Part shown: positions 1 through 19,252 of the stretch, in pieces
How the letters are laid out: every line of letters starts with the position of its first letter
Numbering within the stretch: position 1 is the stretch's first letter
IMG/VR virus record: IMGVR_UViG_3300032236_001645
Location: 15,751-79,750 of that record
Length of the DNA: 64,000 bases
Direction: 5' to 3' (one strand)
From: a virus
Notes under the pieces: generated by a model
Database searches by the model: none
What the model saw: only the letters and a program-made list of their open reading frames with translations
What the model was told of the DNA's origin: nothing
Translations under genes and position numbers: made by a program

Positions 1-816
1 GATGTTATTGTTACTATCGTAAATTGTGTATATACCTGGAGAAACCGCCTTAGTTTGATTACCGTAAAGTGCGTGTGCCAATGTAGAAGAATCATGTTCA
101 ACCATTTCAATTTCAACTGTTGTTGGATTAAAATAAGTGTTTGTTAATATAATACTTTGTCCAGGTTCGCCAATAAATGGAACCACATTAGCACGACTTG
201 ATGGTGCGGATGATGGTGTTACAGTTAAGAACATAAAACTTGTTGCAGCATCCGAATATTGATATCTAATTGATTTATCTGTTGTATTAGATAAATTTGA
301 TAAAATTGGTGTACAATAAAAAGATGATGTTACCAATCTATAAAAGTTTGGTACTTTTTGATTATTAGCTGTGTTTAAATATTCAATTCTATATCCTACT
401 AATCCTTGTGGTGTAAATTTTGCTTGATCTTCTGCTGGTACGTTATTTAAATCAATAACTAATCCTCTAACTGAAGATAAAGAAGCTAAGATTCCACAAT
501 CTGTAATTGATGTTACAATTTGTTTAGGTCTAATATGTAAAGTGTATATTCCTAATTCAGAAAATTGACTTGCAGATAATTTTAAATTATATAAACCACC
601 CAACATCTCATTACTTGGGTTTGATTTATTTGGTGATTTTACTGCTGTTAATGTATCCGCATTATGATATATCGGTGTTAATACCGCAGTTGAATCTAAT
701 TTAGTTAATGTTACTGTAGCCGCAGTAGTTCTATTTGGTGTATAGTGATAAAGTATCTCAGCATCTGCTGGTGATACGTCTGCGGGTCTTGTTATGCCAT
801 ATGCTCCTACTGCCAT
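1..816 (-). CDS. Probable virion structural protein, partial (runs off window start)
   Basis: Open frame from ATG at 816 (MAVGAYGITRPADVSPADAEILYHY...) to the window edge. Missing from the ORF track because it has no stop in the window. Sense TATTTATT at 828-835 upstream. Confidence 0.75.
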   Translation of the reverse strand, partial: MAVGAYGITRPADVSPADAEILYHYTPNRTTAATVTLTKLDSTAVLTPIYHNADTLTAVKSPNKSNPSNEMLGGLYNLKLSASQFSELGIYTLHIRPKQIVTSITDCGILASLSSVRGLVIDLNNVPAEDQAKFTPQGLVGYRIEYLNTANNQKVPNFYRLVTSSFYCTPILSNLSNTTDKSIRYQYSDAATSFMFLTVTPSSAPSSRANVVPFIGEPGQSIILTNTYFNPTTVEIEMVEHDSSTLAHALYGNQTKAVSPGIYTIYDSNNNI

Positions 817-841: not shown

Positions 842-1378
842 TTATTGTTTTTTAACTTTAAAATATCCATTTCCATATATATCCAATTCTCCCGTATTTT
901 CAATCTCACCCAATTTAAAGTTTCTTTCCATAACCCCTAATTTTCCTCTGTTTACAAAAACATCTGAATATATTTGTGGTTGTTCTACAAATCCTAAAAA
1001 ATGTTCATTTCTTGTTAACATATAATTTATTACTTCTTCCTTAGTAAAACCTGTTGTAGAACCACTTATAATTGTTGTTCCATCGGATAAATCATAATAT
1101 TGTAAAACAGTAGAACCTGTAGTATTGTGTGTATATGTGAATGTATAACCTGTTGTATTTAAACCCTCAATAACAGGATGTGTTAAGGTTTGTGTATATC
1201 CAGTGGAACCGTACTTTTTTAATTCCGACAATCTACTACTTCCTAATCCTCTATAATTTAAAGATGTGTAACCCGTTGGTGGATTATATTCATAATCATT
1301 CAAATAACTTTGATTACCAGTTGTGTTGGTATAGGGTATAGTAAATCCTGAAATTGTTCCAAAGTAATGGGTTGACAT
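842..1378 (-). CDS. Hypothetical structural protein (178 aa)
   Basis: ORF with sense TATTTATA motif at 1394-1401; Thr/Gly/Tyr-rich; lies in the structural cluster. Confidence 0.65.
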   Translation of the reverse strand: MSTHYFGTISGFTIPYTNTTGNQSYLNDYEYNPPTGYTSLNYRGLGSSRLSELKKYGSTGYTQTLTHPVIEGLNTTGYTFTYTHNTTGSTVLQYYDLSDGTTIISGSTTGFTKEEVINYMLTRNEHFLGFVEQPQIYSDVFVNRGKLGVMERNFKLGEIENTGELDIYGNGYFKVKKQ

Positions 1379-1467: not shown

Positions 1468-2355
1468 TTAACTATTATTTATGAAATATGCCCTTACGTA
1501 TTTATTTGCGGTATTTGAAACATTACTTGTTGAAACCGATAATTTCAGTGTCCATAATCCTCGATGAATACCTATTGAATTATTTGGTAAATAATCAAAT
1601 ATTTTTGTATAATGTTGATTAGATGGATTTGATGGTGTACCATCTACTCCTGAGAAATTACCCGAATTACTTCTATCAAATGTGATCTGCATTTGATCGG
1701 TATATGTTGTTGTTGTACCTGTACCTCCCGTTACATAAGTAACACCTGTTAAACTTAATGTTGCGGTTACTGTATCTCCTGAAGCAGAATTAAGAAAATT
1801 AGTGTTAAATGCTCTTAATACAATTGCTGGTGGCATAAAATAACCTTGAGAATCAATTGAACTAACTTGACTAATATCTTGGTGAGTATATGCAGTGTAA
1901 TTTAAACCTGAACCGGTATAACCTGATGCCACAGATGTAAATGAACCATCTCCATTTATAACTGCAACTTGTGAAGGTATAACTGATGTTACTTCACCGT
2001 ATACTTCAGTTGTACACATTCCTGATGTTGTAATTTGAATAGCACCAACACCATTTACCGCTGACACTGGATAATTTTGTCCATTAAAATTAGAATAACT
2101 TAAATTGTTAGTATAATTTTGAGAATACAAATTATCATATAATCCATATGTCCATGTTATGTAATTATCATTTCCCGCACCACCATAAATTACATCATAT
2201 CCAGTACTATCCCAAACTGAATATGAAGTATTACCTGTATATATTAAATTTTTTCCTGAAGAATTGTATGATAGTAAGTTTACCTTAAATGCACTTGTGT
2301 TTAAGTTTGTCATTAATGTATTATTACTAAAATTCAAGTATAAATCTCTAGCCAT
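1468..2355 (-). CDS. Hypothetical beta-rich protein, possibly fibre-associated (295 aa)
   Basis: ORF with motif at 2371-2378; Ser/Thr/Asn/Gly/Tyr-rich. Confidence 0.6.
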   Translation of the reverse strand: MARDLYLNFSNNTLMTNLNTSAFKVNLLSYNSSGKNLIYTGNTSYSVWDSTGYDVIYGGAGNDNYITWTYGLYDNLYSQNYTNNLSYSNFNGQNYPVSAVNGVGAIQITTSGMCTTEVYGEVTSVIPSQVAVINGDGSFTSVASGYTGSGLNYTAYTHQDISQVSSIDSQGYFMPPAIVLRAFNTNFLNSASGDTVTATLSLTGVTYVTGGTGTTTTYTDQMQITFDRSNSGNFSGVDGTPSNPSNQHYTKIFDYLPNNSIGIHRGLWTLKLSVSTSNVSNTANKYVRAYFINNS

Positions 2356-2416: not shown

Positions 2417-5400
2417 TTAACAATGTGCTATTAGTGTAAATAATCCATTTGAATCAAATGTACCATAGTTTGTTTTATCTGACCACCTTGCAGCGGCAGG
2501 ACCTGTGAACGGTGTCACACCATCAGATTGATAATAGTTTTTACCGTTTATTAATGTATTCACTCCAAGATATGCATAAACTACACTGTATGCAGTTGGG
2601 TTATTACTACATGCAATTGTACTTGTAGAACCACCTTGAATTGTGAAGCTGGTTAAAGGACATACTATTTGATATTCTATTGTTTGTGCTGTACAACCAT
2701 TACTATCAATTACATATAACCAATAGTAACCACAACTTAATCCTGTTACTGTTACATAGTTATTACTAGCAAGGTTACTAGTTACACCTGTTGTGAATAC
2801 TTGATTATCAGTTGGGTAATCATTATATGGTGTTGCATTATCCTTATACAACTTCATAGTTCTTGTACCTGAACCACCAGAACATGTAATTCTTAATGAA
2901 CCATTTCCACCCGCACCTGTTTCGTTAACAACTTGATCTATGTAACCATATAATGCGTCAGGTGATGTAATTGTTTGTGAGTATGATTGAACACAACCTG
3001 AACTATCTTTAATATAGATTGTGTAATTACCCATAGATAAACTACTAAATGTCTTAGGTAAAGCATAGTAAGTTGAATTATCTGTAGATGCACTATATCC
3101 TGAACCTGAACCACCTGAACCACCACTTACTGCGATACTACCATTATTACTTGTAGCACAAGTTATATTTGTAACTGATATTGTTGCATTTGGTGCTGTT
3201 ACCGCAAATGTAGTTGAAGAAGATGTTGCAGTACAACCATTACTATCTTTAACTGTAACACTATAAGTACCATTACCTAAACCTGTAAATGAATTACTTG
3301 ATTGGTATGTTCCACCATTTAATGAATATGTATAACCACCAGTTCCGCCACCCGCAGTTGCTGTAACACTACCATTAGTACCGTTATAACATGTAGGTGC
3401 CGTTCCTGAAATTGAACTTGTAACCTGTGTTCTTGCAAGGTTTCCAACTGAAACTGACACAACAGTTCCATTTCTACCACTATTTCTTACATAACCTGTA
3501 TATGTTCCACCTGCTAATGAACTGAACGTTGCACTTGACTGCCAGTTTACATTATCTTTAGAATATTCATATGCCGCACCATTACCACCACTTGCACTTA
3601 ATGTAAATGCTGCAGTTGTATCACCATAACATGTTTGTATTGTTGAACTTGCTACTGACAATGATAATGCAGGTAACGAAGGTGTTTGTGTCTGTGTTGC
3701 CGTTTGTGACGGTGTAATATTTGGTGTTGGTGTTTGAGTCGTTGTTTGAGTTGGGGTAGGTGTTTGTGTAACACAAGGAGTACATAAACCATTTAATGTT
3801 GCGGTAGTTCCTGATACCGATTTTGTTGCACTTCTATAACTTCCGTTTAGAGCAATATAAAAATTACCAATTGGTACTGTTACAATATTTGTTGAAGATA
3901 TTGACGTCGCATCACATAAACTAATGCCACCCGTTAAAGTTACTTTACCTAATTGTATACCATTATAACAAGCACTGTACGCATCTGCACCCCAAGTATA
4001 TGGAGGTTGTGTTGGTGTCGGCGTTTGTGTCATAGTTGGTGTAACACTTGGTGTTTGAGTTTGTGTTGGCGTTTGAGTTTGCGTACCCGTTTGAGTTTGA
4101 GTTTGAGTTGGTGTAATAGTATTTGTTGGTGTTACTGTTTGTGTTTGAGTTGGTGTAATAGTATTTGTTGGTGTTACTGATGGTGTTGATGTAACAGTTT
4201 GTGTGATAGTTGTGGTTGGTGTAATAGTATTTGTTGGCGTAACAGTATTTGTTGGTGTTACTGTTTGAGTCGGAGTTTGAGTTTGAGTTGCAGTCACCGA
4301 TGGAGTAATTGTATTTGTTGGTGTAACTGTTTGTGTTGGCGTTGGACTTGGAGCTAACACGCTTACATTGATTCCAAAGAAACACTGGATTGTTGGGGTT
4401 GGTGTTTGTGTTGTGGTAGGAGTTACTGTAGTAGTTGGTGTAATTGTATTCGTAGGTGTAACTGTTGGTGTAACAGTCTTTGTCGGTGTTTGCGTTTGTG
4501 TTGATGTTGGCGTTTGGGTAGTTGTTGGTGTGATAGTGTTTGTAGCGGTAATTGTTTGTGTAATAGTTGTGGTAGGTGTAATAGTATTTGTTGGTGTAAC
4601 AGTATTTGTTGGTGTTTGTGTATTTGTAGGTGTAATAGTATTTGTTGGTGTAACTGATGGAGTTATAGTGTTTGTTGCTGTAACTGTTTGTGTTGGTGTT
4701 GGGCTTGGTGCCAATACAGATACGTTGATTCCGAAGAAACATTGGATCGTAGGAGTAGGTGTTTGCGTTGTTGTCGGTGTAACCGTTGTTGTAGGTGTAA
4801 CTGTTTGAGTTGGTGTTACAGTAGGTGTACTTGTTCTTGTTTGTGTATTTGTTGGTGTAACTGTTGTCGTTGGTGTAACAGTTTGTGTAATAGTTGTTGT
4901 AGGTGTAATAGTATTTGTTGGCGTTATTGTATTTGTAGGCGTTTGAGTAGTTGTTGGTGTAATAGTCTGTGTCGCTGTTACTGATGGAGTAATTGTATTT
5001 GTTGGAGTAATAGTTTGTGTTGGAGTTGGTGATGGGGCAAGTACCGAAACGTTTATACCAAAGAAACATTGAATTGTTGGAGTTGGTGTTTGCGTCGTTG
5101 TTGGTGTAACGGTAGTCGTAGGTGTTATAGTATTTGTTGGTGTAACAGTTGGTGTAATTGTGGTAGTAGGTGTGATTGTATTTGTCGGAGTAACGCTTGG
5201 TGTTGACGTATTTGTTGCAGTAATTGTTTGTGTTGGAGTAATAGTAGTTGTTGGTGTAATAGTTTGTGTTGCTGTTACTGATGGTGTAATAGTATTTGTT
5301 GGGGTTATAGTTTGAGTTGGTGTCGGACTTGGAGCAAGTACTGAAACATTAATACCAAAGAAGCACTGTATAGTCGGAGTCGGCGTTTGTGTCGTAGTAG

Positions 5401-8400
5401 GTGTAACAGTTGTAGTTGGTGTAATAGTATTTGTTGGGGTGACAGTTGGCGTATGAGTCGTAGTTGGTGTAACCGTTGTTGTAGGTGTAACTGTTTGTGT
5501 TGGTGTCACAGTTGTAGTTGGCGTAACAGTACTTGTTGGTGTAATTGTTTGTGATGCTGTTACTGATGGTGTAATAGTATTTGTTGGCGTAACCGTATTT
5601 GTTGGCGTAGGTGATGGTGCGAGAACAGAAACATTTATTCCAAAGAAACACTGAATTGTTGGTGTTGGCGTTTGTGTTGCAGTTGAAGTAACCGTGGTTG
5701 TCGGTGTGATAGTTGTAGTTGGAGTAACAGTCTGTGTATGTGTTGTAGTAGGTGTAACCGTAGTTGTTGGTGTTACAGTTTGGGTGGAAGTTACTGTTGT
5801 TGTTGGGGTAACTGTTGTAGTTGGAGTAATAGTGTTCGTTGGAGTTACAGTTGGGGTAACTGTGGTTGTCGGTGTAATAGTTGTAGTTGGAGTAGGGCTT
5901 GGTGCCAACACACTCACATTGATTCCGAAGAAACATTGGATAGTAGGTGTTGGTGTTTGCGTGGTAGTTGGTGTAACAGTCGTTGTTGGTGTAATTGTAT
6001 ATGTTGGGGTTACAGTAGGTGTAATAGTATTTGTTGGTGTAACCGTATTTGTTGGTGTAGGTGAAGGTGCCAATACGCTTACATCTATACCAAAGAAACA
6101 CTGTATGGTTGGTGTAGGTGTTTGGGTAGTCGTTGGTGTAACAGTTGTAGTTGGTGTAATTGTTGTTGTCGGTGTAACTGTTTGTGTTTGAGTTGTAGTT
6201 GGCGTAACTGTTTGTGTTTGAGTAACAGTTGGTGTTTGAGTTGGAGTTTCTGTGTTTGATGGTGTAACAGTTTGGGTAGGTGTTGGTGAAGGTGCAAGAA
6301 CAGATACATTGATTCCGAAGAAACATTGGATTGTAGGTGTAGGTGTTTGCGTCGTTGTTGGAGTAACGGTAGTGGTTGGTGTAATAGTAGTAGTAGGAGT
6401 AACTGTAGTAGTTGGTGTAACTGTTGGGGTTACTGTTGGTGTTAAAGTTGTAGTTGGAGTTTGTGTAGGTGTTTCCGTATTTGATGGTGTTATCGTTTGC
6501 GTTGGTGTAGGGCTTGGAGCTAGTACACTTACATCTATACCAAAGTAACACTGAATAGTCGGAGTTGGCGTTTGTGTGGTAGTTGGCGTAACGGTAGTAG
6601 TTGGTGTAATAGTAGTGGTTGGAGTAACTGTTGGAGTTTGTGTAACAGTCGGCGTTTGAGTTGGTGTCTCCGTATTTGAAGGTGTAATAGTTTGTGTTGG
6701 AGTAGGTGATGGGGCAAGTACTGATACGTCAATACCAAAGAAACATTGAATTGTTGGTGTTGGCGTTTGAGTCGTGGTAGTTGTTGGTGTTATTGTATTC
6801 GTAGGCGTCACAGTTGGGGTAACCGGTGGTGTGGATGTTACTGTTTGAGTCGGAGTTGGTGACGGAGCAAGAACCGATACATTTATACCAAAGAAACATT
6901 GAATTGTTGGTGTTGGTGTCTGTGTTGCAGTTGTAGTTGGTGTAATAGTTGTAGTAGGTGTTACACTTGGAGTAACCGGTGGAGTGGATGTTGTGGTTGT
7001 TGTAGGTGTTGGTGATGGTGCAAGTACTGATACGTCAATACCAAAATAACATTGAACTGTTGGTGTTGGCGTTTGAGTTGAAGTTACTGTTGGTGTAATC
7101 GTAGTAGTAGGTGTTACCGTAGGTGTTGGTGGCATAGTACTAGTGACAGTTGGCGTTGGAGTTGAAGTAGGTGCCAATACACTTACATTGATTCCGAAGA
7201 AGCATTGAATTGTAGGTGTAGGTGTTTGAGTAGCGGTAGGAGATGGTGTTGGTGGCATAGTACCGGTAACAGTAGGTGTTGGGGTAGTTGTTGGTGCCAA
7301 AACACTTACATCAATACCAAAGAAACATTGAATTGTTGGAGTTGGTGTCTGTGTAGTGGTTGATGTAACACTAGGGGTTACTGTTGTTGTTGATGTAACA
7401 CTCGGAGTAACTGTTTGTGTATTTGTATTTGTTGGTGTATTTGTATTTGTTGGTGTAACAGTCGTTGTTGGTGTAACTGTGGGTGTTTCAGTCGGATTTG
7501 GAGTACCTGTATTAGTTGATGTAACACTTGGAGTAATTGTATTGGTAGGTGTTAAAGTTGGTGTTGATGTATTTGTTACCGTAGCAGTTTGAGTTGTAGT
7601 TGGCGTTTGTGTAACAGTTGGAGTGATAGTTGTAGTTGCTGTAACTGTTTGTGTCAGTGTTTGAGTTTGCGTATTAGTAGGTGTAACTGTTGTTGTTGAT
7701 GTAACAGTTGGTGTTTGTGTAAGAGTTTGGGTAGGTGTTACTGTAGCAGTAACTGTATTTGTTGGTGTTACAGTTGTGGTAGAAGTTGGTGTTTGTGTTG
7801 GTGGTAATGTTTGTGTTGGTGTGGTAGTTGGTGTTTGAGATATAACAAAAACATCATCAATATCATCATACCATATAATTTCATAAGAATTACCAGATGC
7901 TGCAGGTGTTGGTAAATTAAATGTAAATGACTCATTTAAATAATCAACTACATTTCCACCATAAGGTATTAATCTTGTGGTGTTGTTATATTTTGTATCA
8001 ATAAGTGAACCATTTTTCCATAATTCAACTCTAGTTGTATGTACATAAACAGAATATAAATTATCATTATGATACATTATTCTTTGTGCACTTATTGTTG
8101 TTTGTCCAACACACACATCACTATTAACATAGTCTGATGTAAAATACCATGGTGCTGGTGGTTCATTACTATCATTTGTAACTAAATCTGAAAGTAATGC
8201 CGATGGACACGTAGAGTCCAAATATGATTTAACAGTTGGTACATAAACATTAATACCACCAGATTTTACATTATTAAGTTGTTCATATGTAATCTTAACT
8301 TCAAGTGAAGTTTTAGTTGTTGTAGGTGTAACTGTAGCGGTAACAGTTGGTGTTGGTGTATATGATGCGGTATTTGATGGTGTTAAAGGTATATACGTTG

Positions 8401-9103
8401 ACGTTGGTGTTGTTGTAATAGTAGTGGTTGGTGTTACAGTAGGTGTAACCGTAACAGTCGGTGTGATAGAAGGTGTAACTGTTGGTTGTACTCCACATAA
8501 ATTAACAACTTTTAAAACTTGATTACTTATGTATGGTGAATCTAATAATATGTTGATTATTTTTTCACCAGGTGTTGAATAATATTTAGTTGTTGAACCA
8601 TTAAGTGTTATTCCTGACGATGTACCATCTCCCCAATTAATAGTAAAGACAGGTGATATATCAGGATTTGCATTAATTTTATCAACGACTTGATACGTTG
8701 TTGTATTATAAATTGTAATTGTATCACACGTGGCAGTATACATGAAGTTTGCTGTGATGTAATTGTGTTCAATTTTACCATCAAAATCAACCATTATACC
8801 TTGTTCATCAACTTTTGATTCTAAATAAACTGGTATTTGATAATCGCCATAAACTTTTTGTTTTACATCTCCTGAAATTTGTTCCCAAAAATCACCAGTA
8901 TATTTGTAATAACCTTCAACTAAACTTCCTGTAACATTTGTATTATATATAATTGAACCTGTATCAGGTGCACATAAATTTACCGAACCTGAAAACCATG
9001 GAACTAAACTACCTGATGAATCTAACCAAGAATGGGCATTAGTTGATACTAACGAACCCGTCAGTATATTTTTCTGCCTAATTGAATATCTTGTTTTTTT
9101 CAC
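2417..9103 (-). CDS. Giant fibre/adhesin-like protein (2228 aa): PKD-like N-terminal region (INWGDG), long Thr/Pro mucin-like stalk with 14 conserved knot motifs, C-terminal SprB-like repeats
   Basis: GTG start with motif at 9108-9115; alternating T-x repeats; 14 x (I/V)QC(F/Y)FGI(D/N)VSVLAP; C-terminal GGTGGYTYSLNG...GTYSVTVKDSNGC-type repeats. Confidence 0.75.
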   Translation of the reverse strand: MKKTRYSIRQKNILTGSLVSTNAHSWLDSSGSLVPWFSGSVNLCAPDTGSIIYNTNVTGSLVEGYYKYTGDFWEQISGDVKQKVYGDYQIPVYLESKVDEQGIMVDFDGKIEHNYITANFMYTATCDTITIYNTTTYQVVDKINANPDISPVFTINWGDGTSSGITLNGSTTKYYSTPGEKIINILLDSPYISNQVLKVVNLCGVQPTVTPSITPTVTVTPTVTPTTTITTTPTSTYIPLTPSNTASYTPTPTVTATVTPTTTKTSLEVKITYEQLNNVKSGGINVYVPTVKSYLDSTCPSALLSDLVTNDSNEPPAPWYFTSDYVNSDVCVGQTTISAQRIMYHNDNLYSVYVHTTRVELWKNGSLIDTKYNNTTRLIPYGGNVVDYLNESFTFNLPTPAASGNSYEIIWYDDIDDVFVISQTPTTTPTQTLPPTQTPTSTTTVTPTNTVTATVTPTQTLTQTPTVTSTTTVTPTNTQTQTLTQTVTATTTITPTVTQTPTTTQTATVTNTSTPTLTPTNTITPSVTSTNTGTPNPTETPTVTPTTTVTPTNTNTPTNTNTQTVTPSVTSTTTVTPSVTSTTTQTPTPTIQCFFGIDVSVLAPTTTPTPTVTGTMPPTPSPTATQTPTPTIQCFFGINVSVLAPTSTPTPTVTSTMPPTPTVTPTTTITPTVTSTQTPTPTVQCYFGIDVSVLAPSPTPTTTTTSTPPVTPSVTPTTTITPTTTATQTPTPTIQCFFGINVSVLAPSPTPTQTVTSTPPVTPTVTPTNTITPTTTTTQTPTPTIQCFFGIDVSVLAPSPTPTQTITPSNTETPTQTPTVTQTPTVTPTTTITPTTTVTPTTTQTPTPTIQCYFGIDVSVLAPSPTPTQTITPSNTETPTQTPTTTLTPTVTPTVTPTTTVTPTTTITPTTTVTPTTTQTPTPTIQCFFGINVSVLAPSPTPTQTVTPSNTETPTQTPTVTQTQTVTPTTTQTQTVTPTTTITPTTTVTPTTTQTPTPTIQCFFGIDVSVLAPSPTPTNTVTPTNTITPTVTPTYTITPTTTVTPTTTQTPTPTIQCFFGINVSVLAPSPTPTTTITPTTTVTPTVTPTNTITPTTTVTPTTTVTSTQTVTPTTTVTPTTTHTQTVTPTTTITPTTTVTSTATQTPTPTIQCFFGINVSVLAPSPTPTNTVTPTNTITPSVTASQTITPTSTVTPTTTVTPTQTVTPTTTVTPTTTHTPTVTPTNTITPTTTVTPTTTQTPTPTIQCFFGINVSVLAPSPTPTQTITPTNTITPSVTATQTITPTTTITPTQTITATNTSTPSVTPTNTITPTTTITPTVTPTNTITPTTTVTPTTTQTPTPTIQCFFGINVSVLAPSPTPTQTITPTNTITPSVTATQTITPTTTQTPTNTITPTNTITPTTTITQTVTPTTTVTPTNTQTRTSTPTVTPTQTVTPTTTVTPTTTQTPTPTIQCFFGINVSVLAPSPTPTQTVTATNTITPSVTPTNTITPTNTQTPTNTVTPTNTITPTTTITQTITATNTITPTTTQTPTSTQTQTPTKTVTPTVTPTNTITPTTTVTPTTTQTPTPTIQCFFGINVSVLAPSPTPTQTVTPTNTITPSVTATQTQTPTQTVTPTNTVTPTNTITPTTTITQTVTSTPSVTPTNTITPTQTQTVTPTNTITPTQTQTQTGTQTQTPTQTQTPSVTPTMTQTPTPTQPPYTWGADAYSACYNGIQLGKVTLTGGISLCDATSISSTNIVTVPIGNFYIALNGSYRSATKSVSGTTATLNGLCTPCVTQTPTPTQTTTQTPTPNITPSQTATQTQTPSLPALSLSVASSTIQTCYGDTTAAFTLSASGGNGAAYEYSKDNVNWQSSATFSSLAGGTYTGYVRNSGRNGTVVSVSVGNLARTQVTSSISGTAPTCYNGTNGSVTATAGGGTGGYTYSLNGGTYQSSNSFTGLGNGTYSVTVKDSNGCTATSSSTTFAVTAPNATISVTNITCATSNNGSIAVSGGSGGSGSGYSASTDNSTYYALPKTFSSLSMGNYTIYIKDSSGCVQSYSQTITSPDALYGYIDQVVNETGAGGNGSLRITCSGGSGTRTMKLYKDNATPYNDYPTDNQVFTTGVTSNLASNNYVTVTGLSCGYYWLYVIDSNGCTAQTIEYQIVCPLTSFTIQGGSTSTIACSNNPTAYSVVYAYLGVNTLINGKNYYQSDGVTPFTGPAAARWSDKTNYGTFDSNGLFTLIAHC
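4350..7350 (-). repeat. Intragenic coding repeat: 14 copies of TQTPTPT(I/V)QC(F/Y)FGI(D/N)VSVLAP separated by Thr/Pro linkers
   Basis: Gly-codon anchors at 7317, 7194, 7041, 6888, 6735, 6540, 6315, 6090, 5925, 5640, 5355, 5058, 4731, 4374; copies differ mainly at synonymous sites. Confidence 0.95.
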
Positions 9104-9134
9104 TTACTATAAATAACTTACTTTAATTTTTATG

Positions 9135-10769
9135 TTAAGGATAATGTATTAAATTACCTGTGGCACAATCATACCATCCCCCAATTAAACCATGATCAAT
9201 ATATACGATATGTGTAAATACGTTACTTGTTCCAAGTGCCGCCGCCCAATAGTGACCCTCATTTGCAATTATTGGTAAAGAAGTAACCGGTGTACCATCT
9301 GTACTTCCACTATATAATGCGTTGTATGCAACACCTGGTGTTGGTGTTGTACCTGTAACACTAACATCAAAATAAACACCATAGACTGTGTTTCCCGTAT
9401 ATGAATATGCTTGGTAAATGTTTTTGTTACACAAATTAGTTTTATAATCATTTACGGAAGTAAATCCGGTAACATTCGCAATTGTCATATGTGCGGTACG
9501 ATAAGTTGCTCCCCTATAATGTGTCGGATCTTGTCCACAGTTTAATGCATATGGAGCTACACTCTTACTACCTTCAATAGTTCCGTTAGGATCAGTTAAT
9601 AATAAATCAATAACTGTATAATAGAAAAATCCTGCAGGTGGAGATCCAGGTAAACCATTTGAACCACCTCTAAACAAATCACCTCTTTGTATTGAATTGT
9701 TTAAAAATGCATTCTTTGAATAGTGATAAATATTAAGTGAAGGATCTTCATCACATCTAGTCATTTTTAACCAATAATATACGGTTGTTGGTGTTGGTGT
9801 TGGTGTCGGAGTTGGAGTTTGAGTTGTTAGAATAGTTGCTCGTGTTGGTGTAGGTGTAGGTGTTTGAGGGCAATTTAAATTTGGTATAGATGGTGGTGCC
9901 ATAGCACCTCCTCTTTCAAAAAAAACAACAGGATTATTTATTGTTCCAACTTTTTTACCTTTAGTTCCCTTATATAAATAAACTTTATATGTGTGATATA
10001 TTTTATCAATATCAATTTGATAATACATATCATTACTCTCATTAATACCTATTGTATTTGTATAAACACTTGTATATGATGTATTTGTAAAATCTGTTAT
10101 ACTTCCATCTTCAGCGTTGTAAAATTTAGCAGTCATGAAGAAAGTATTACCAGTTGTTGTTCCACTTAAATTACTATTTTCTAAAACACTTTCATCTTCA
10201 AACCAATAGAAATACATATTTTCTTTTTTCTCGTAATTTGAACCTTTGAAAATTGGTAAATGTATGTATCCATTTAATGGTTGATAAAAATATTTTTCTC
10301 CATTGGGTAATGATAAATTTTTTGCAAAAATTAATTTTCTATTTGTTCTTGTAGGTGGTTGGTATCCTATTACATTACCATTTATATCTGTTATATTTGG
10401 TGTTTTAAAAAATTCTAATCTAAAGAAACTTTTAGTTACTTGTTTTAACATATGTTCATTTTCCGTGTAACTTAATCCAGTAGGATTATAATCCGTAACA
10501 TATGTTCCTCCTGTGCTAATAAAATAAAAATAAAACCATATGTCTGTTTGTGATAAATTTTCACTTTCTAATATGTTACAATCAACAAACATAGAGTAAG
10601 GTTCATGAATATACCTTATTGTTTCATAATTAATAATTGGATTAATGATATCAATTAACGCTTCTTCTTCATATTGAACCAAATTTTCTTCCCAACCAAG
10701 ATTAGTTTGGAAATCAGTTTCAGCATTTAATATTAAATTAATATCTTGATTTGTTCTTATGATTTCCAT
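9135..10769 (-). CDS. Probable tail/baseplate protein with Thr/Pro linker and variable C-terminal domain (544 aa)
   Basis: Coupled to the upstream gene by a TAATG overlap; TPTPTP linker. Confidence 0.6.
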   Translation of the reverse strand: MEIIRTNQDINLILNAETDFQTNLGWEENLVQYEEEALIDIINPIINYETIRYIHEPYSMFVDCNILESENLSQTDIWFYFYFISTGGTYVTDYNPTGLSYTENEHMLKQVTKSFFRLEFFKTPNITDINGNVIGYQPPTRTNRKLIFAKNLSLPNGEKYFYQPLNGYIHLPIFKGSNYEKKENMYFYWFEDESVLENSNLSGTTTGNTFFMTAKFYNAEDGSITDFTNTSYTSVYTNTIGINESNDMYYQIDIDKIYHTYKVYLYKGTKGKKVGTINNPVVFFERGGAMAPPSIPNLNCPQTPTPTPTRATILTTQTPTPTPTPTPTTVYYWLKMTRCDEDPSLNIYHYSKNAFLNNSIQRGDLFRGGSNGLPGSPPAGFFYYTVIDLLLTDPNGTIEGSKSVAPYALNCGQDPTHYRGATYRTAHMTIANVTGFTSVNDYKTNLCNKNIYQAYSYTGNTVYGVYFDVSVTGTTPTPGVAYNALYSGSTDGTPVTSLPIIANEGHYWAAALGTSNVFTHIVYIDHGLIGGWYDCATGNLIHYP

Positions 10770-12598
10770 TAACAGTTTAGTAAATTTTTATTTCTATTAT
10801 TATTTTTATCATTAAAGTCTATTACTCCATCTTGTTTGTTTGTAAAATACATTTCATTTCTTAAATAAAAATTAATATCGGCTTTAACATAATGATTACC
10901 ATTTACAAACGGAAAATTTGTACCATATCCTTCTGTATCAACAAATCCATGATCATATAAATCTCTCCATCTCCAAACATTTTCATCTGTATAATACTTC
11001 GCATTTTCAGGTAAATTATAAATGTCTTTAACTTTAGACACTTCAATATATGGTGACAATTGTCTTAACATTATTTTATGATGTGCCTTATAATATAATC
11101 CAACAGGATTTGTTATACTTGCACCACTAAATAAAGTTCCATCAGGAAATGAAATAGGTGAACTTGTTTGTCCATAATCAATTATACCTGTACTTTGTGT
11201 TATTTTATGGAAGGTTTCACTAATTGTTCTTTCTTTTAATTCCCTTGGATTGTATTCAATGTAATCACCAATTAATGTTGTACCTGTTGTTATACCTGTA
11301 CCGCCAGTAAATGTTTCAAAACCACTTTCAGGAACATTTGGTGAAAAAGTGTATGTAAATCCTGTCATGTTTTTTTCTATGGATGTTGAACCATCAAAAA
11401 CATTATCAATCCACGTATCATGAAAATTAAATTTATATCCTATTTTAGATGGATAATTAAATAAACCATTACCGTTTCTAAAAATTGTTGTAACATAAAC
11501 TTCCGTTGGTGTAATATTAAAATTATTTGTTATTCCACTTAATTGAAATGGTTTTTTAAAATCATATAAAACCGATTCCATTCTATTTCTTTCAACTAAC
11601 ACATCATTTACTCCTGCACTGTTTTCAAATAATAATTTTTTCTCATCTTCAAATATTGGATTTTCAAAACCAATGGTATCCATAATATACCCATGACTAT
11701 CAGTTAATGTTTTATGTTTATGTACATAATATTGTGAAGTTGTTCCACTTATATTTGTATAATCTAAACATCTTTTACCAGTTAATAATGTTGAAAATGT
11801 TACACCACTTGGTATTTGTGTTTTTAAAATATTAATGACATATTTTTCTGAATTAAAAACTTCATTACCAACTGACGCAATTTGAAAAGTTCTACCTGAT
11901 ACTGTTGTACTTGTTAATGTACTACCTGATAAAGTAACAAATTCACCTTCATTCATTCCGTGTTCTACAGGACTTGTTAATTCATAATATGTTGCACCTG
12001 TTTCAACTAAACCAAACGATACTCTAAATGGAATTCCGTCACCAGAAGTGAATGACATTTGTGTGTTTCCCGTTAAAGTGTATTTCATCGGGTATGTGGC
12101 ATCGGAACCACTAACGTATGTTAAATATAAATTCCAATTTGTATATGGAGCTTCTATTGGTGAAATGTTTTTATGTTTACTATAACCAGTTGTAGATGAA
12201 GTATATCCATTAAAATCTGTTAAACTACCTGATTGTGGTATAGTAATTTGTCTATATACATCTTTTCTTAAAAACGCAAATTCATCATATGGAACATAAC
12301 CATTAAAATTATAATCACTACCATCACCAACTAAAAATAACTTTTCTTCAAGTGCAGTATAATCTGCTGTACCTTCAAAAAGATTACGAAATATCATTCT
12401 TATCTTACCGTATATTTTATAATTGACACTTTCATTTCTTTCTTTGTCATATAACTGATCAATATCAAGAACAATATCTCTATCACCAATTCTCATTAAT
12501 GATTCAGAAGTGTCCAAACTAAGTGGCATGTTCAAATCAGAATCATTCGCCTTTGCGTATTCTTTACTTGGTAATAATATTTGTTTGTTTTCTTCCAC
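10769..12598 (-). CDS. Probable baseplate/tail structural protein (609 aa)
   Basis: Long ORF in the operon downstream of the gp25/gp6-like genes. Confidence 0.55.
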   Translation of the reverse strand: MEENKQILLPSKEYAKANDSDLNMPLSLDTSESLMRIGDRDIVLDIDQLYDKERNESVNYKIYGKIRMIFRNLFEGTADYTALEEKLFLVGDGSDYNFNGYVPYDEFAFLRKDVYRQITIPQSGSLTDFNGYTSSTTGYSKHKNISPIEAPYTNWNLYLTYVSGSDATYPMKYTLTGNTQMSFTSGDGIPFRVSFGLVETGATYYELTSPVEHGMNEGEFVTLSGSTLTSTTVSGRTFQIASVGNEVFNSEKYVINILKTQIPSGVTFSTLLTGKRCLDYTNISGTTSQYYVHKHKTLTDSHGYIMDTIGFENPIFEDEKKLLFENSAGVNDVLVERNRMESVLYDFKKPFQLSGITNNFNITPTEVYVTTIFRNGNGLFNYPSKIGYKFNFHDTWIDNVFDGSTSIEKNMTGFTYTFSPNVPESGFETFTGGTGITTGTTLIGDYIEYNPRELKERTISETFHKITQSTGIIDYGQTSSPISFPDGTLFSGASITNPVGLYYKAHHKIMLRQLSPYIEVSKVKDIYNLPENAKYYTDENVWRWRDLYDHGFVDTEGYGTNFPFVNGNHYVKADINFYLRNEMYFTNKQDGVIDFNDKNNNRNKNLLNC

Positions 12599-12612
12599 TT
12601 TTTATATTTTTA

Positions 12613-15600
12613 TTAAGTAGTTGTTGGTGATGGTGTATTAGTTGGTGTTGGTGTTACATTTGGCGTTGGTGTTGGTGTTGTTGTTCCTTGCATGGTTGGT
12701 GTTGGTGTTGGTGAAACTCCTATAGAACTATATTCCAAATATGTATAAACTTCAGTTGGTTCAACAAACGCACCCTTAGGTCCGAACGCATCAATAAATT
12801 TATCCAAACCAGTTTTACCATGTCTTAAACCAAAATAAAATTGGAATGGTGTTGATAATATTTGTTTAGTAACTCCACTATAATAATCCATTCTTTGTGG
12901 TAAAATAAAATCAACATTATTATCCCAATAGATTGATTGCCAACCTGTCGCACCTGACATAGGATCTGATGTATCATTACCTGCGGGACCGACTCTTATA
13001 AACAATCTACCTGAGGTTGGTGAGGTTTGTGTTCCACCAGTAACATACAAATATGTAAATCCAGGGTATTCTGAATTATGTGCAGTATATCCACTACTTA
13101 TTGATATAACATCAAATTCAAGCACATCGGTTAAATTAAGATTATTAATTGTAATACCACTAAAATCATCTGTAAATGGTAATAACAAATATTTGTCACT
13201 ATCATCATCATACATTCCATTATAAGTATACCCATAAGTTGTGCCTGATATATATGTTGTCATACCTTGTAATGGTTGTACTCTTATTGTACTAAAATCC
13301 CAAGATTGATCATCGGATGTTGCTGCGGATGTTCCACCAAACCCAGTACCTTTTTTATCCCAATAAAAAAATGGTACAGGTTGTGATGATTCTGTTAATC
13401 TACCTTGAACAAGGTTTCCATAATAATCATAATGTGTTGGTTCATTTAAACAAGATCTAACTCTATCACCGTCATGACTTAATTCAAATGTTACAGGTAA
13501 AGGACCCCAATAACCTGAAGTGCCACCTGAATAATTCTTTTTGAAAAATTGGGGATAAAATGTTGGATCTAAATATTCAAAATCATAACCAACATATTTT
13601 GGACTTTGTAAATCAAATTCTTCAATACCAGTTTCACAGTTAATTGAAATTGATTGTAATAAATCACCATCAAAAACATTTTCAAATCCGGCAGATTTAA
13701 AACTACCACCATTTGTAAAAAAGTCATCTAAACCAAAACTAAGATCAGATTGCATTCTATAATTAATTGCTAATCCCAATAATTCACCAAAATTTTGATG
13801 TGATGTTGGTCCAATTGATCGAGATACTGAACAGTTCGGATCTAAAGATTCGTCAATACAAATTTCTTTAATGAATTCATCTCTCGGTCCTAAGTCGACA
13901 AATGTTGTTGGATGTGTAATACCAAGAAAAGTATTTGTTGTTGCATTGAATGGTGCCGATCTATAATAAAATCTACTTTGTCCATCAACATATCTAACAA
14001 GATCTCTACAGTATTTAATTAAATTTTCAGCTCCTTTAGTTATTCTTCTAACTTTAAATTGGAAAAAATATAATGAACCTGAAAGCCAGTTATCTATAAA
14101 TCCATAATTAACAATACCACCACAAAACATTTTACCAACTCTTTTTCTTCTATAATATTCTAATAAAATTCCATTTAATCTTCCGCTACTTTGAGTACCT
14201 GGTACAATATAGTAAACACCATTTCTAAATTCACTCATAGGATTACCATTCGGCAAACCAAATTTGTATTGAGAACAGTTAATTTTTCTAACGTCTTTCA
14301 TATCCGTAAATGCGGTATTTGTTCCACTACCATAAATTGCGGTTGAAATTAATTTACCATCAATATTAGGGTCATATGTTGCTACGTATCTTCTAAAAGG
14401 TTGTCCACGTTCGGTTATTACAGTTTGATATACATCCGTTGTATGACAACTAACTGGTGGATATACACCAGTTGCTGATTCAACATAATATCCATGAATA
14501 AGACTTGTATCGTAAACTTTATCATACATATCACAACCTGATTCTGTATTAGTGGTACTACCAGTATTACTACTATTAATAGAATTAGGATCAATTATTT
14601 TAACAGTATAAGTTGTATTAGTATCAGTAAAATATTTCTGTCCATCAAGAAAATAATAATTACCACTATAATTAAAAACCGCAACTGATTGATCATCATA
14701 CGCACCATTGTTAAGATACATAAATGAATTATTAAGATTTACAACGGCATATACATCCTGTCTAGCAATTAAATCGTGTATATCAGTAATAGTTGTACCA
14801 GTTGCACCACAATCTGTATCGTTATATATAGTGAAATTACTTATCTGTTTTAATGAATTGGTACTTCCCGTAATCTGAAAAGTTGCCATAATACAACTTA
14901 TACCTCCACCACTTATACCTACCGGTTGACTTTCCGATGAACATTCGCTACAATCTGGATAATTTATTAAACTTAGTTTTGTTGTATTTTCTCTTTGTAC
15001 TGAACTTAACCAGTTTTGTAATTGATGTCCCATTTGATTTGCCCAACCAATATTTGTACCTTCTAAAAAATCACCAATACCACCCAAAAGAAAAATCATT
15101 GTATTTAAAAACATTAATGTAAGCCATTTAAATACAAAATCTAAAATCAATAAAAAATCAGCAATTAATAATGTAAATGTATAATTTTTTGTTGCAAAAT
15201 TTACCGGTGGAATTAAATTATCACAATCTTCTTCTTCAGGTGGAACCAATTCTTTTAACCCAACATATTGATTTTTACCAAATAATGTTGCTCCGATTGC
15301 TGCACCTGCGGGACCACCAACCGCACCACCTATAAGTGCACCTGTGTAATCTTGTTTAATGTAATGACTTTGAAATGAAGAAAGAGTATATACTTTATTA
15401 TAATTAAATCTATAGAAATAATCTTTAGGATAATATTCTCCATTTTCAGAATATAAAATACCTTTACTTGAATCATTACTTACTGCCGGTATTGGATAAT
15501 CATTCCAATCAGTAGAAAAGGCATAAGATTTGTCATCTATTGTTGAACCTGAAATGTATTCTCTAATATTTGGAATTAAGTAATCAGCATTAGCACGAAC

Positions 15601-16713
15601 TCTTGATAAACCATTATCATCAATATTAATTCTAATACGATAACACGCAGATGTTGCAATACCTTTATTCGGATCATTTGTAATTACAATGTCACCAAAC
15701 TCATCGGTATAAACATAATCCATGTTCATAGGTAATGGCATCATAAAACCACCATCTTCTGATATATCTTCATGTAAATCATATTCTTCTAAATAAGGTC
15801 TGTGGTTTTCATCTTTTTGTGGGGTAAATCTTATCGCCTCAATCTTTGCGGATTTTGTTACTAAATCACATTTTCTACCCATTTTCTTTCTTGGTGTACA
15901 GTTTTTATTAACTGAATTTTTACCATTATCAGTAAAAACACCACCAATCAAATATGCTTTAGGTTCTATTTTAACACCTTTATCAGATAAGTCAAAGTCT
16001 GCTCTACTAATACCAATTTCACAATAATCTTCACTTCCCCAAAATGGATAAACTTCAATTGATTTATCAAATGTAACAATTTGAGGTAACGAAGTTAAAT
16101 CTTCAGATGCTTTAAATTTATATTTGTTTTTAAAATTATCAACTCCTTTACCTTGTCTTATAAAATCGTAAGGTCTTAATGAAAAACAACCAATATCAGA
16201 TAAGTCAACATCTACGTGTAAAGTTTGTGTACCCAATGGAACTCCCCAAATCATAAAGTCACCCGCCATATTAGTTTTAACGGTATATGTGTAATAATTT
16301 TCATATACTTCTAATATCGCTTCTTGAGTTAAAATATCTTCCTGATCAGGAAAAGTACCTGTTGGTTGATGTCCACTATGTTGTTGTCTTTTTGGTAATA
16401 AATTGTAACGATAATTGTTATCGTCTTTGTCTGAAATTGTCTTATATGGGTATAAACTTGAAATTACGGGATCATTAATATGTTCCTCCTTTAGGGGTAC
16501 AAAAATAGAAACCCTTGCATTTGGAACACCAAAACCATTGTTTACTGAAATTCTTCCACAAACCACCCCGTAATCCGCACAAAATGATGAATATGTCTGT
16601 TGTTGACTAAATTTTAGAGATAAGATTTCTAATAAGTCAAAATCTTGTTTTAACTCAACTTTAATAAGTTGATCTTTACCAATCTCCGTTGAAATTCTGT
16701 GTTTTTGTACCAT
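12613..16713 (-). CDS. Large baseplate-associated protein (1366 aa): N-terminal carboxypeptidase-regulatory-like beta domain, glycine zipper plus hydrophobic segment, Thr/Pro tail
   Basis: YGVVCGRISVNNGFGVPNARVSIF; GALIGGAVGGPAGAAIGA; LLIADFLLILDFVFKWLTLMFLNTMIFLLGG; position after the gp6-like gene. Confidence 0.55.
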   Translation of the reverse strand: MVQKHRISTEIGKDQLIKVELKQDFDLLEILSLKFSQQQTYSSFCADYGVVCGRISVNNGFGVPNARVSIFVPLKEEHINDPVISSLYPYKTISDKDDNNYRYNLLPKRQQHSGHQPTGTFPDQEDILTQEAILEVYENYYTYTVKTNMAGDFMIWGVPLGTQTLHVDVDLSDIGCFSLRPYDFIRQGKGVDNFKNKYKFKASEDLTSLPQIVTFDKSIEVYPFWGSEDYCEIGISRADFDLSDKGVKIEPKAYLIGGVFTDNGKNSVNKNCTPRKKMGRKCDLVTKSAKIEAIRFTPQKDENHRPYLEEYDLHEDISEDGGFMMPLPMNMDYVYTDEFGDIVITNDPNKGIATSACYRIRINIDDNGLSRVRANADYLIPNIREYISGSTIDDKSYAFSTDWNDYPIPAVSNDSSKGILYSENGEYYPKDYFYRFNYNKVYTLSSFQSHYIKQDYTGALIGGAVGGPAGAAIGATLFGKNQYVGLKELVPPEEEDCDNLIPPVNFATKNYTFTLLIADFLLILDFVFKWLTLMFLNTMIFLLGGIGDFLEGTNIGWANQMGHQLQNWLSSVQRENTTKLSLINYPDCSECSSESQPVGISGGGISCIMATFQITGSTNSLKQISNFTIYNDTDCGATGTTITDIHDLIARQDVYAVVNLNNSFMYLNNGAYDDQSVAVFNYSGNYYFLDGQKYFTDTNTTYTVKIIDPNSINSSNTGSTTNTESGCDMYDKVYDTSLIHGYYVESATGVYPPVSCHTTDVYQTVITERGQPFRRYVATYDPNIDGKLISTAIYGSGTNTAFTDMKDVRKINCSQYKFGLPNGNPMSEFRNGVYYIVPGTQSSGRLNGILLEYYRRKRVGKMFCGGIVNYGFIDNWLSGSLYFFQFKVRRITKGAENLIKYCRDLVRYVDGQSRFYYRSAPFNATTNTFLGITHPTTFVDLGPRDEFIKEICIDESLDPNCSVSRSIGPTSHQNFGELLGLAINYRMQSDLSFGLDDFFTNGGSFKSAGFENVFDGDLLQSISINCETGIEEFDLQSPKYVGYDFEYLDPTFYPQFFKKNYSGGTSGYWGPLPVTFELSHDGDRVRSCLNEPTHYDYYGNLVQGRLTESSQPVPFFYWDKKGTGFGGTSAATSDDQSWDFSTIRVQPLQGMTTYISGTTYGYTYNGMYDDDSDKYLLLPFTDDFSGITINNLNLTDVLEFDVISISSGYTAHNSEYPGFTYLYVTGGTQTSPTSGRLFIRVGPAGNDTSDPMSGATGWQSIYWDNNVDFILPQRMDYYSGVTKQILSTPFQFYFGLRHGKTGLDKFIDAFGPKGAFVEPTEVYTYLEYSSIGVSPTPTPTMQGTTTPTPTPNVTPTPTNTPSPTTT

Positions 16714-16767
16714 TCTTATAATAAATAGAAAAAATGAAATTTTCTACTATTATAAACTAAAAAACTT

Positions 16768-18600: not shown

Positions 18601-18601
18601 T

Positions 18602-19054
18602 TTAAATGTTTAAGATTACAAAATCCGAAGATGTAAATGCTCCGTTATTGACATTATATTCTATTTTTACAACTGCAGTATATGGTTTAGCGGAATTATC
18701 TGAAATTCTAAAAAGTCGATTATCCTCATTTTCCGCAGGTGATCTAAATTGTGACGGATCATCTTCGGCAGACATTATATTAATTGATGTAATATCTAAA
18801 TTAGGAATGTATTTTTTAACCGATTCTCTAATTTCACTTTCAATTAAACCATAGGTTACCGCATCATTCTGATCAAAAATAAATTGATATAATCTAGTTC
18901 CAAAATCAGGTAAAAAGTACCTACTTCCTTTTCTTGTTAATAACAAGTGGATTAAATTTGCTCTAATCTCTCTTTCGGGAGTTGGAGTCATTTTTAGAAA
19001 TTTACCTTCTAAACTGTCACTAAACGGAAAATCTACACCGTATGATACTGCCAT
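18602..19054 (-). CDS. Baseplate wedge subunit, gp25/GPW-like
   Basis: NLIHLLLTRKGSRYFLPDFGTRLYQFIFDQ signature; adjacent to gp6-like gene. Confidence 0.9.
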   Translation of the reverse strand: MAVSYGVDFPFSDSLEGKFLKMTPTPEREIRANLIHLLLTRKGSRYFLPDFGTRLYQFIFDQNDAVTYGLIESEIRESVKKYIPNLDITSINIMSAEDDPSQFRSPAENEDNRLFRISDNSAKPYTAVVKIEYNVNNGAFTSSDFVILNI

Positions 19055-19084
19055 ATTGTATAAATATAATCAATAGTAAAATGG

Positions 19085-19252
19085 TTATGTATCTTCTTCT
19101 GTATTTGTATTTCCTTTTTGATGTGGGGGTAGATATGGACATTCAGAACATTTATTACCACAACAATAACCTCTCTTTAACAAAAAAAGAGAAGTCAGAA
19201 CCATAAGTCCTGACTCCTCATCTATTGTATAATCAACACCCTCTATTAACAT
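19085..19252 (-). CDS. Small Cys-rich protein, DUF5522-like (55 aa), not in ORF track
   Basis: MLIEGVDYTIDEESGLMVLTSLFLLKRGYCCGNKCSECPYLPPHQKGNTNTEEDT; ATG overlaps the RNR stop (TAATG). Confidence 0.75.
   Translation of the reverse strand: MLIEGVDYTIDEESGLMVLTSLFLLKRGYCCGNKCSECPYLPPHQKGNTNTEEDT

Follow-up and report, generated by a model that had tools for sequence, protein, structure and literature searches.

In a 64,000-nucleotide stretch of viral DNA (the window; bases 15751-79750 of the 79.75-kb IMG/VR virus record IMGVR_UViG_3300032236_001645, CheckV completeness 26%), one gene encodes a protein of 2228 amino acids (aa) which, judged from its sequence, is a real and very long appendage of a jumbo myovirus. 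Its stalk is a chain in which threonine occupies every second position, (T-x)n, and the chain carries 14 copies of a short Cys-containing peptide, here called a knot, at distances that widen from the N- to the C-terminus. The knots are tentatively interpreted as homotypic clasps or cross-link points that would bundle parallel fibre chains in register, the widening giving a stiff base and a floppy end. We rate this interpretation slightly short of an even chance.

The pattern [IV]QC[FY]FGI[DN]VSVLAP was matched 14 times in the 2228-aa translation, with knots starting at residues 591, 632, 683, 734, 785, 850, 925, 1000, 1055, 1150, 1245, 1344, 1453 and 1572. From the N- to the C-terminus the periods are 41, 51, 51, 51, 65, 75, 75, 55, 95, 95, 99, 109 and 119 aa, and the linkers between knots measure 27, 37, 37, 37, 51, 61, 61, 41, 81, 81, 85, 95 and 105 aa. 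Copy number and periods agree exactly with an earlier sequence-only reading of the same DNA, and no further copy of the motif was found elsewhere in the 79.75-kb record. The rise in spacing (Spearman rho 0.958, permutation p ≤ 5e-6) became weaker when adjacent related units were pooled into 6 blocks (p = 0.017), and it is not chance. The changes of period had been described as mostly multiples of 10 aa, which holds for 6 of the 8 non-zero changes. The periods had also been described as all odd, which is true but uninformative: since the linkers begin and end on T or S in strict alternation, their length must be odd, and the 14-aa motif keeps the period odd. When the 14 knots are aligned out of register, at most 3-4 of them coincide.

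The stalk (aa 436-1700) comprises about 1265 residues in strict (T-x)n alternation. As claimed earlier, the linkers alternate, with T or S in 402 of 406 alternate positions; the residues in between are P (37%), followed by V, T, Q, I and N. A hexad is the commonest linker sub-unit, a Pro-Pro spacing of 6 being seen 69 times versus 17 times for a spacing of 4. Fully extended, at the usual 0.31-0.34 nm per residue, the stalk is computed to reach about 390-430 nm, and the earlier proposal of a very long extended filament or appendage is supported. The stalk is almost without Gly, with no Pfam Collagen match, so the Gly at every third residue that a collagen-like helix calls for is not found. Pro-Thr "PT box" linkers of bacterial glycoside hydrolases resemble it in composition and in their presumed behaviour as extended spacers. 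PT boxes, however, are tens of residues long, without a strict T at every second position and without embedded knots, unlike the stalk in all three respects.

The label "mucin-like" given to the stalk applies to its composition and to nothing beyond it. Gel-forming mucins have Pro/Thr/Ser (PTS) domains interrupted by CysD domains, and plant extensins are Ser-Pro rods with periodic Tyr cross-link motifs; the likeness is that of a Thr/Pro-rich rod broken at intervals by small hydrophobic elements capable of cross-linking. CysD domains, however, are folded, about 100 aa long and carry many Cys, whereas the islands found here are single strands of 12-14 aa with exactly one Cys. There is no homology, and the protein is made in the bacterial cytoplasm.

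Long open reading frames (ORFs) are also present in the stalk region in alternative frames or antisense, at 3963-5069 and 5349-6551 on the minus strand and at 4368-4808 and 5694-6191 on the plus strand. They were rejected as genes, being by-products of the low-complexity ACN/CCN repeats. In addition, many short contigs of a third metagenome of the same study (run X3) matched the Thr/Pro stalk at window positions 4000-7800 with 90-95% identity and a very high summed depth; (T-x)n-coding sequences of a related type seem to be abundant in that habitat.

A knot profile built from 18 copies was searched against 1.84e9 proteins, and loci fetched by their anchor (see below) were scanned as well. This search, which the sequence-only reading had proposed, uncovered a knot family in related phages. 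An array may hold 1-14 knots, and arrays occur in at least three types of protein, namely anchor-bearing proteins (type A), giant proteins of 1700-2400 aa (type B) and proteins with a distinct N-terminus (type C). The family core is x-C-x-F-x-[VI]-x-[VLI]-x-[VI]-[VIL], with one Cys exactly, and its variants include ILCYFGINVSVL, IECFFGIDVNVV, INCSFGISVTVV, TVCEFGLSVVVL, xDCRFDVDLNVV, PDCLFDVDIDVV, PNCNFGVGVVVL and PECNFDVEVIVV. A search for islands between the Thr/Pro (TP) linkers that did not presuppose Cys gave 201 short non-TP islands, 177 of them with exactly one Cys; 21 "Cys-less" islands were mostly clipping artefacts.

Profiling of 135 distinct knots, in windows anchored on Cys so that Cys is 100% by construction, placed Phe at +2 in 95% of them. 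Positions 0, +2, +4, +6, +8 and +9 were hydrophobic in 91-100% (+4, +6, +8 and +9 in 91-98%), and the hydrophobic share was ≤ 8% at -1, +3 and +5, 29% at +1 and 19% at +7; Gly stood at +3 in 49 of the 135. The element of 12-14 residues has one face of Cys-Phe-Ile-Val-Val and an opposite polar face dominated by Asp, Asn, Gly and Ser, often with four acidic residues. This alternation upholds the earlier proposal of a beta-strand pattern and bears the signature of an amphipathic beta strand. Since the polar face is Asp/Asn-rich in most variants, it is suggested to be solvent-exposed.

Knots agree with an identity of 0.75 inside an array, 0.70 across the different proteins of a genome and 0.38 across genomes; the 14 copies of the 2228-aa protein, at 0.92, are the extreme. 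Pure (T-x)n stalks of 330-570 aa, free of knots, are found in some orthologs, and since such stalks exist, the knots are best described as accessories added to the spacer. All 15 non-redundant arrays widen from the N- to the C-terminus (positive Kendall S), with periods such as 51, 61, 85; 45, 55, 79; 22, 26, 36, 46 then 61, 61, 71, 81; and 23, 33, 33, 37, 43, 43, 43. The first period is the minimum, or tied for it, in all 15. The pooled permutation p for widening was ≤ 5e-5, also after dropping the 2228-aa protein and its closest kin, and these p-values overstate independence, because the arrays have common ancestry and grow by tandem duplication. In the tally of the 15 arrays, 10-aa steps make up about half of the non-zero changes; the shortest linker in the family is 11 aa.

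One ortholog of 1296 aa (P0002) bears a second kind of knot, PxHCELGGDATYIPP, which is probably a hairpin. It occurs at residues ~260-410 in five copies with periods of 22, 26, 36 and 46, upstream of five ILCYFGINVSVLAP knots, so that two knot types share one stalk and both arrays widen.

The earlier reading took the near-invariance of the peptide, with varying codons, as protein-level selection, and the counts agree. Pairwise among the 14 copies, the proportion of synonymous differences (pS) is 0.74-0.79 versus 0.08-0.09 for nonsynonymous ones (pN), and Ser10 is encoded by both AGY and TCN codons, which indicates that selection acts strongly on the knot as a protein sequence. The codon difference between copies was 0.532, compared with 0.436 ± 0.030 for random draws from the codon usage of the gene, and 0 of 300 simulations reached the observed value. 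Since the codons are scrambled and over-dispersed relative to simulation, the knots have undergone no recent gene conversion; the knot DNA may itself be selected to differ between copies. An age gradient with younger N-terminal units does not explain the widening, since adjacent-copy identity (27-35 of 42 nt) shows no trend along the array. The codon for Phe4 is TTC in all 12 knots with Phe at that position, though the gene prefers TTT; TTT there would make a T7 run (TGTTTTTTTGG), which the invariant TTC interrupts.

Neither the stalk nor the knot had a match in Pfam, PHROG or the PDB, and the knot motif profile found nothing among PDB sequences up to E 10. The anchor-family profile matched one PDB entry (8zvk, E 5e-18), read as a Thr/Pro linker match because the matched profile positions lie just past the anchor, where the linker begins. 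The ESM Atlas gave unnamed viral clusters only (scores ≤ 0.89). As a DNA pattern, the exact-type motif was found in only one other viral contig; metagenome contigs gave 3 matches and no knot (1 motif-like peptide without Thr/Pro context and 2 out of frame), and genome contigs gave 6 chance matches, all without Thr/Pro context. A literature search on TPTPT phage proteins and threonine-proline tail fibers found nothing relevant. In its knot-bearing (T-x)n stalk the protein presents a phage fibre with a repeat element that has no earlier description.

The window (G+C ~30%) contains genes for a gp6-like baseplate wedge, a tail sheath, a family-B DNA polymerase (PolB), a ribonucleotide reductase, a DnaB-like helicase and a collagen-like protein, and its tail sheath reaches at most 33-41% identity to those of deposited phages. 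Since related contigs are as long as 316-324 kb, the source is assigned to an uncultured jumbo myovirus. The 2228-aa gene lies downstream of the wedge (PHROG 219/6, Pfam Baseplate_J) on the strand shared with the tail sheath, and the gene order 150-610(wedge)-1366-609-544-2228-295-178, given as protein lengths, is syntenic with the closest relative (contig L011). By this position it is a gene of the baseplate/tail module. The same phage encodes a second, different kind of fibrous protein, a 760-aa ORF with collagen triple-helix repeats (55769-58051, minus strand; Pfam PF01391, E 4e-23).

The 2228-aa protein aligns with its orthologs from residue 1 on. The N-terminal 205 aa, used as query, recovered orthologs of 370-1438 aa, and a scan of viral contigs with an anchor profile gave 236 loci, 80 of which were fetched, each only with 8 kb on either side; anchor identity among the 80 was 36-52%. 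The anchor consists of a small beta domain, a highly conserved segment and a predicted sandwich resembling PKD/FN3 domains with a WGDG motif. The AlphaFold2 (AF2) model, from a 14-sequence alignment, has a predicted local distance difference test score (pLDDT) of 65. In this model, aa 114-205 resemble the PKD1 domain of PrtV (4l9d, VIA: Z 8.7, root-mean-square deviation 2.5 Å over 81 aa), and Foldseek matched them to PKD/FN3 domains at E 1e-3 to 5e-3; there was no Pfam PKD match. The most conserved segment, aa 86-114 (8762-8848, minus strand), with P91, L94, D99, E100, G102, M104, V105, F107, D108 and G109 invariant in 14 sequences, is the worst-modelled part (pLDDT 34-42), as would be expected of a segment ordered only in an assembly.

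At the opposite end, the tip is composed of a small Cys-containing module, a short TP linker, SprB repeats and a C-terminal domain. With aa 1742-2228 scanned alone, SprB (PF13573) scored 32.7 bits (cut-off 28; E 5.9e-8) in 3 stretches, and a Pfam scan of the whole protein gave nothing at E ≤ 0.01. The tip also matches PHROG 26672, "virion structural protein" (E 8.7e-13), and is 45% identical to the C-terminus of a separate 1999-aa protein B of the closest relative. For the globular insert between the first linker and the stalk no family was found (no Pfam match in the N-terminal 448 aa, no PHROG match).

In the favoured interpretation, the anchor, shared with a ~370-aa protein of the baseplate block, would hold the appendage in the baseplate. 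The (T-x)n chain would act as an extended spacer, of about 0.4 µm if fully stretched, and the SprB tip as an adhesin. Hydrophobic faces of the same knot on parallel chains would pack in register, possibly joined by knots of other virion proteins with the same variant, and would tie hydrophilic chains that do not otherwise interact into one bundle. There, each chain would bring its one Cys next to those of its partners, and a disulfide or metal site may form after the virion has left the cell. With closely spaced clasps towards the anchor and few towards the tip, the base of the fibre would be the stiffer part and its end the floppier.

Several points weigh against knots as clasps. That the bundle should be a trimer comes only from general knowledge of phage fibres, and we know of no stable clasp formed by three isolated parallel strands. 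An in-register clasp alone accounts neither for the graded linkers nor for the 10-aa steps, which are odd given the hexad of the linkers, and it leaves unexplained why copies at different levels stay identical. The arrays compared are not phylogenetically independent. Structure prediction, called for by the sequence-only reading, was run on a single chain of the stalk and was uninformative: the AF2 single-sequence model of aa 575-800, with 5 knots, is unusable (pLDDT 43, predicted template modelling score 0.30).

A further proposal, which we consider unlikely, is that the spacing itself is functional. The protein would be a "ruler-coded", redox- or cation-triggered deployable fibre, in which the (T-x)n chains form a multi-chain structure with a 10-residue repeat and the one-Cys strands serve as locks. 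Lock distances would then have to widen from base to tip, giving either a tapered stiffness, as in a whip or a fishing rod, or a single possible register, whether among chains of the same protein or among the various knot-bearing proteins that a virion contains.

The near-identity of the copies could instead be due to a cross-beta stack, in which the knots within a chain, perhaps together with those of the remaining chains and of other knot-bearing virion proteins, pile up as a beta-solenoid or amyloid-like core. The product would be a bottle-brush instead of a 0.4-µm thread, with the Thr/Pro linkers as graded loops. In-register ladders of Asn, Gln, Ser, Phe and Cys would demand identity, and 14 copies 92% identical despite scrambled codons fit this demand; a stack explains better than a clasp why copies must stay identical. 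One knot variant common to different proteins of a genome also fits, as does the family's minimal linker of 11 aa, about the length of a strand. Moreover, FapC and CsgA demonstrate that stacking is possible for strand repeats whose linkers vary widely, and they share with the knots near-identical short strand repeats, very unequal linkers and polar positions rich in Asn, Gln and Ser. However, knot linkers are stiff Pro-rich rods, and a stack would use up hundreds of such residues on loops. Copy number varies far more than in CsgA/FapC, and the array lies between an anchor and a putative adhesin tip. No Pfam match to the Curli/Fap families was obtained on the 2228-aa protein. Some arrays have just 1-3 knots and isolated single knots occur as well, copy number ranges from 1 to 14, and the orthologs with pure (T-x)n stalks do without knots altogether. 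The polar face of most variants would produce four Asp ladders, repelling each other without cations, and the low-confidence AF2 model lends no support. We consider the stack unlikely.

Docking of a partner protein also merits consideration; like inter-chain staples and a stacked core, it was already listed in the sequence-only reading. Each knot would be a donor strand that completes or binds the fold of a partner, either a decoration subunit or another knot-bearing appendage, and the stalk would be a string holding 14 partner copies at set distances. The amphipathic pattern of the knot, with a hydrophobic and an exposed polar face, fits donor-strand complementation, which uses such strands in chaperone-usher pili, and a common partner would account both for identical copies and for genome-specific variants. 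The relative's proteins A and B even have the same knot sequence and the same first two periods, 51 and 61, but this can be explained by recombination (see below), and no candidate partner was found. The sequence-only reading had pointed to the neighbouring 178-aa and 295-aa proteins, and neither holds up as a specific knot partner. The former is a split-off C-terminal domain of the anchor protein with a counterpart in 55 of 66 knot-free loci. The latter has a homolog in the contig of the closest relative alone; none turned up in the 80 related loci, which extend 8 kb to either side, and the protein has no Pfam family above cut-off and no PHROG match. Docking is rated as improbable.

The origin of the 178-aa ORF follows from the anchor family. 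About 60 of the 80 loci encode a ~370-aa protein made of the anchor and a 175-aa C-domain, and this gene is followed by a conserved ~306-aa gene (as in locus L095). What follows the anchor varies, from the 175-aa domain up to stalks of > 2000 aa with different tips, and in long-stalk phages the C-domain is a separate ORF after 0-5 inserted genes. The 178-aa ORF shares 47-64% identity with short-form orthologs over their C-terminal halves (for instance 8622-9119 within ORF 8001-9122 of L095), and the gene at the start of the window stands after the anchor gene in nearly all relatives. An ancestral gene of the baseplate module was thus split at the domain boundary, with stalk, tip and extra genes inserted there. 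No PHROG or Pfam family was found for the anchor, a short-form 374-aa ortholog, the 178-, 295-, 544- and 609-aa neighbours or the 306-aa gene. Coordinates of all features are collected in Table 1.

Table 1. Features of the fibre-like gene and its neighbours; positions are those of the window.
Feature	Position	Strand	Basis
Conserved gene, 272+ aa within window	1..816	-	72-75% identity to ~306-aa ORFs of relatives
178-aa ORF, split-off C-terminal domain of ancestral ~370-aa anchor protein	842..1378	-	ortholog identity
295-aa ORF	1468..2355	-	syntenic in closest relative; 57% identity to 297-aa ORF of L011
Fibre-like protein gene, 2228 aa	2417..9103	-	ORF listing and translation; GTG start, stop codon 2417-2419
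N-terminal anchor, aa 1-205	8489..9103	-	relatives in viral contigs, AF2 model, fold matches
First Thr/Pro linker, aa 206-268	8300..8488	-	composition T 42%, P 17%
Globular insert, ~aa 269-435, 2 Cys	7799..8299	-	translation
(T-x)n stalk segment without knots, aa 436-590	7334..7798	-	composition, linker sequences
Array of 14 knots, aa 591-1585, with 13 (T-x)n linkers	4349..7333	-	motif matches
Knots 1-5	7292-7333, 7169-7210, 7016-7057, 6863-6904, 6710-6751	-	
Knots 6-10	6515-6556, 6290-6331, 6065-6106, 5900-5941, 5615-5656	-	
Knots 11-14	5330-5371, 5033-5074, 4706-4747, 4349-4390	-	
Distal (T-x)n linker without knots, aa 1586-1700	4004..4348	-	linker sequences
Distal tip, aa 1701-2228	2420..4003	-	Pfam SprB, PHROG 26672, relative's protein B

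Compared with L011 (coordinates 10001-13195 and 13506-19505), the 2228-aa protein is a chimera that joins the anchor of a 1064-aa fibre A to the SprB tip of the separate protein B. The last knot unit of fibre A is ~92% nucleotide-identical to the first of protein B, which suggests fusion by recombination within the stalks. This chimera and the shared unit would also be in line with knots that have no structural role and serve as conserved recombination junctions for shuffling stalk and tip cassettes between genes. A recombination site acting on DNA would need the reverse of the codons scrambled beyond random and the longest exact repeat of 37 nt seen here, and what is conserved is the peptide, with its strict beta-strand pattern; such a role is very unlikely.

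An assembly artefact that produced the unit number or the spacing is extremely improbable: the region is repetitive, k=31 Logan unitigs break within it without bridging the whole gene, and only the probable source run contains it, but no exact nucleotide repeat in the gene is longer than those 37 nt, units are just 72-82% identical in DNA, and the same architecture and widening recur in independent contigs of other phages. Logan unitigs from that run tile the gene, without mismatch over the knot array and with 3 mismatches in the 5'-most piece (7319-9500), at a depth of 15-30 versus 15 in the flanks; they are the same data as the assembly and no independent sample. The sequencing runs listed for the region included none of RNA. 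Given the short longest repeat and the mismatch-free tiling at single-copy depth, a collapsed or mis-ordered repeat is therefore unlikely.

Among known systems, T4-type fibres of the baseplate periphery are close in setting: the gene sits in the baseplate block, the N-terminal anchor is conserved, stalk and tip vary, and tips are exchanged between genes in mosaic fashion. The needle of T4 gp37 has a shaft stapled along its axis by His-Fe sites, and this idea of repeated axial staples matches the knots. The triple beta-spiral of the adenovirus fibre shaft and reovirus sigma1 is similar in having a short repeat with alternating hydrophobic residues, sometimes Gly, and variable loops. Its repeats, however, are contiguous units of ~15 aa with a conserved Gly/Pro turn and no invariant Cys, whereas the knots lie 27-105 aa apart (at least 11 aa in relatives), have Gly at +3 in the minority noted above and do not form contiguous repeats with such a turn. 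To our knowledge, phage fibre shafts with solved structures are beta-helices, beta-spirals, coiled coils or collagen-like helices. In the databases searched, the 2228-aa protein resembles no solved fibre in sequence or fold, and its shaft is a (T-x)n chain with isolated strands of 12-14 aa, not a beta-helix, beta-spiral or coiled coil.

The finding implies that a clade of uncultured jumbo phages, with contigs of up to 324 kb, would build appendages of up to about 0.4 µm from a (T-x)n chain and a one-Cys amphipathic strand. If the ruler proposal were true, it would amount to a new way of building long protein fibres, and a functional spacing would provide a simple and evolvable way to tune fibre length, stiffness or register. 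This would bear on how jumbo phages find their hosts and may supply a design motif for engineered fibres.

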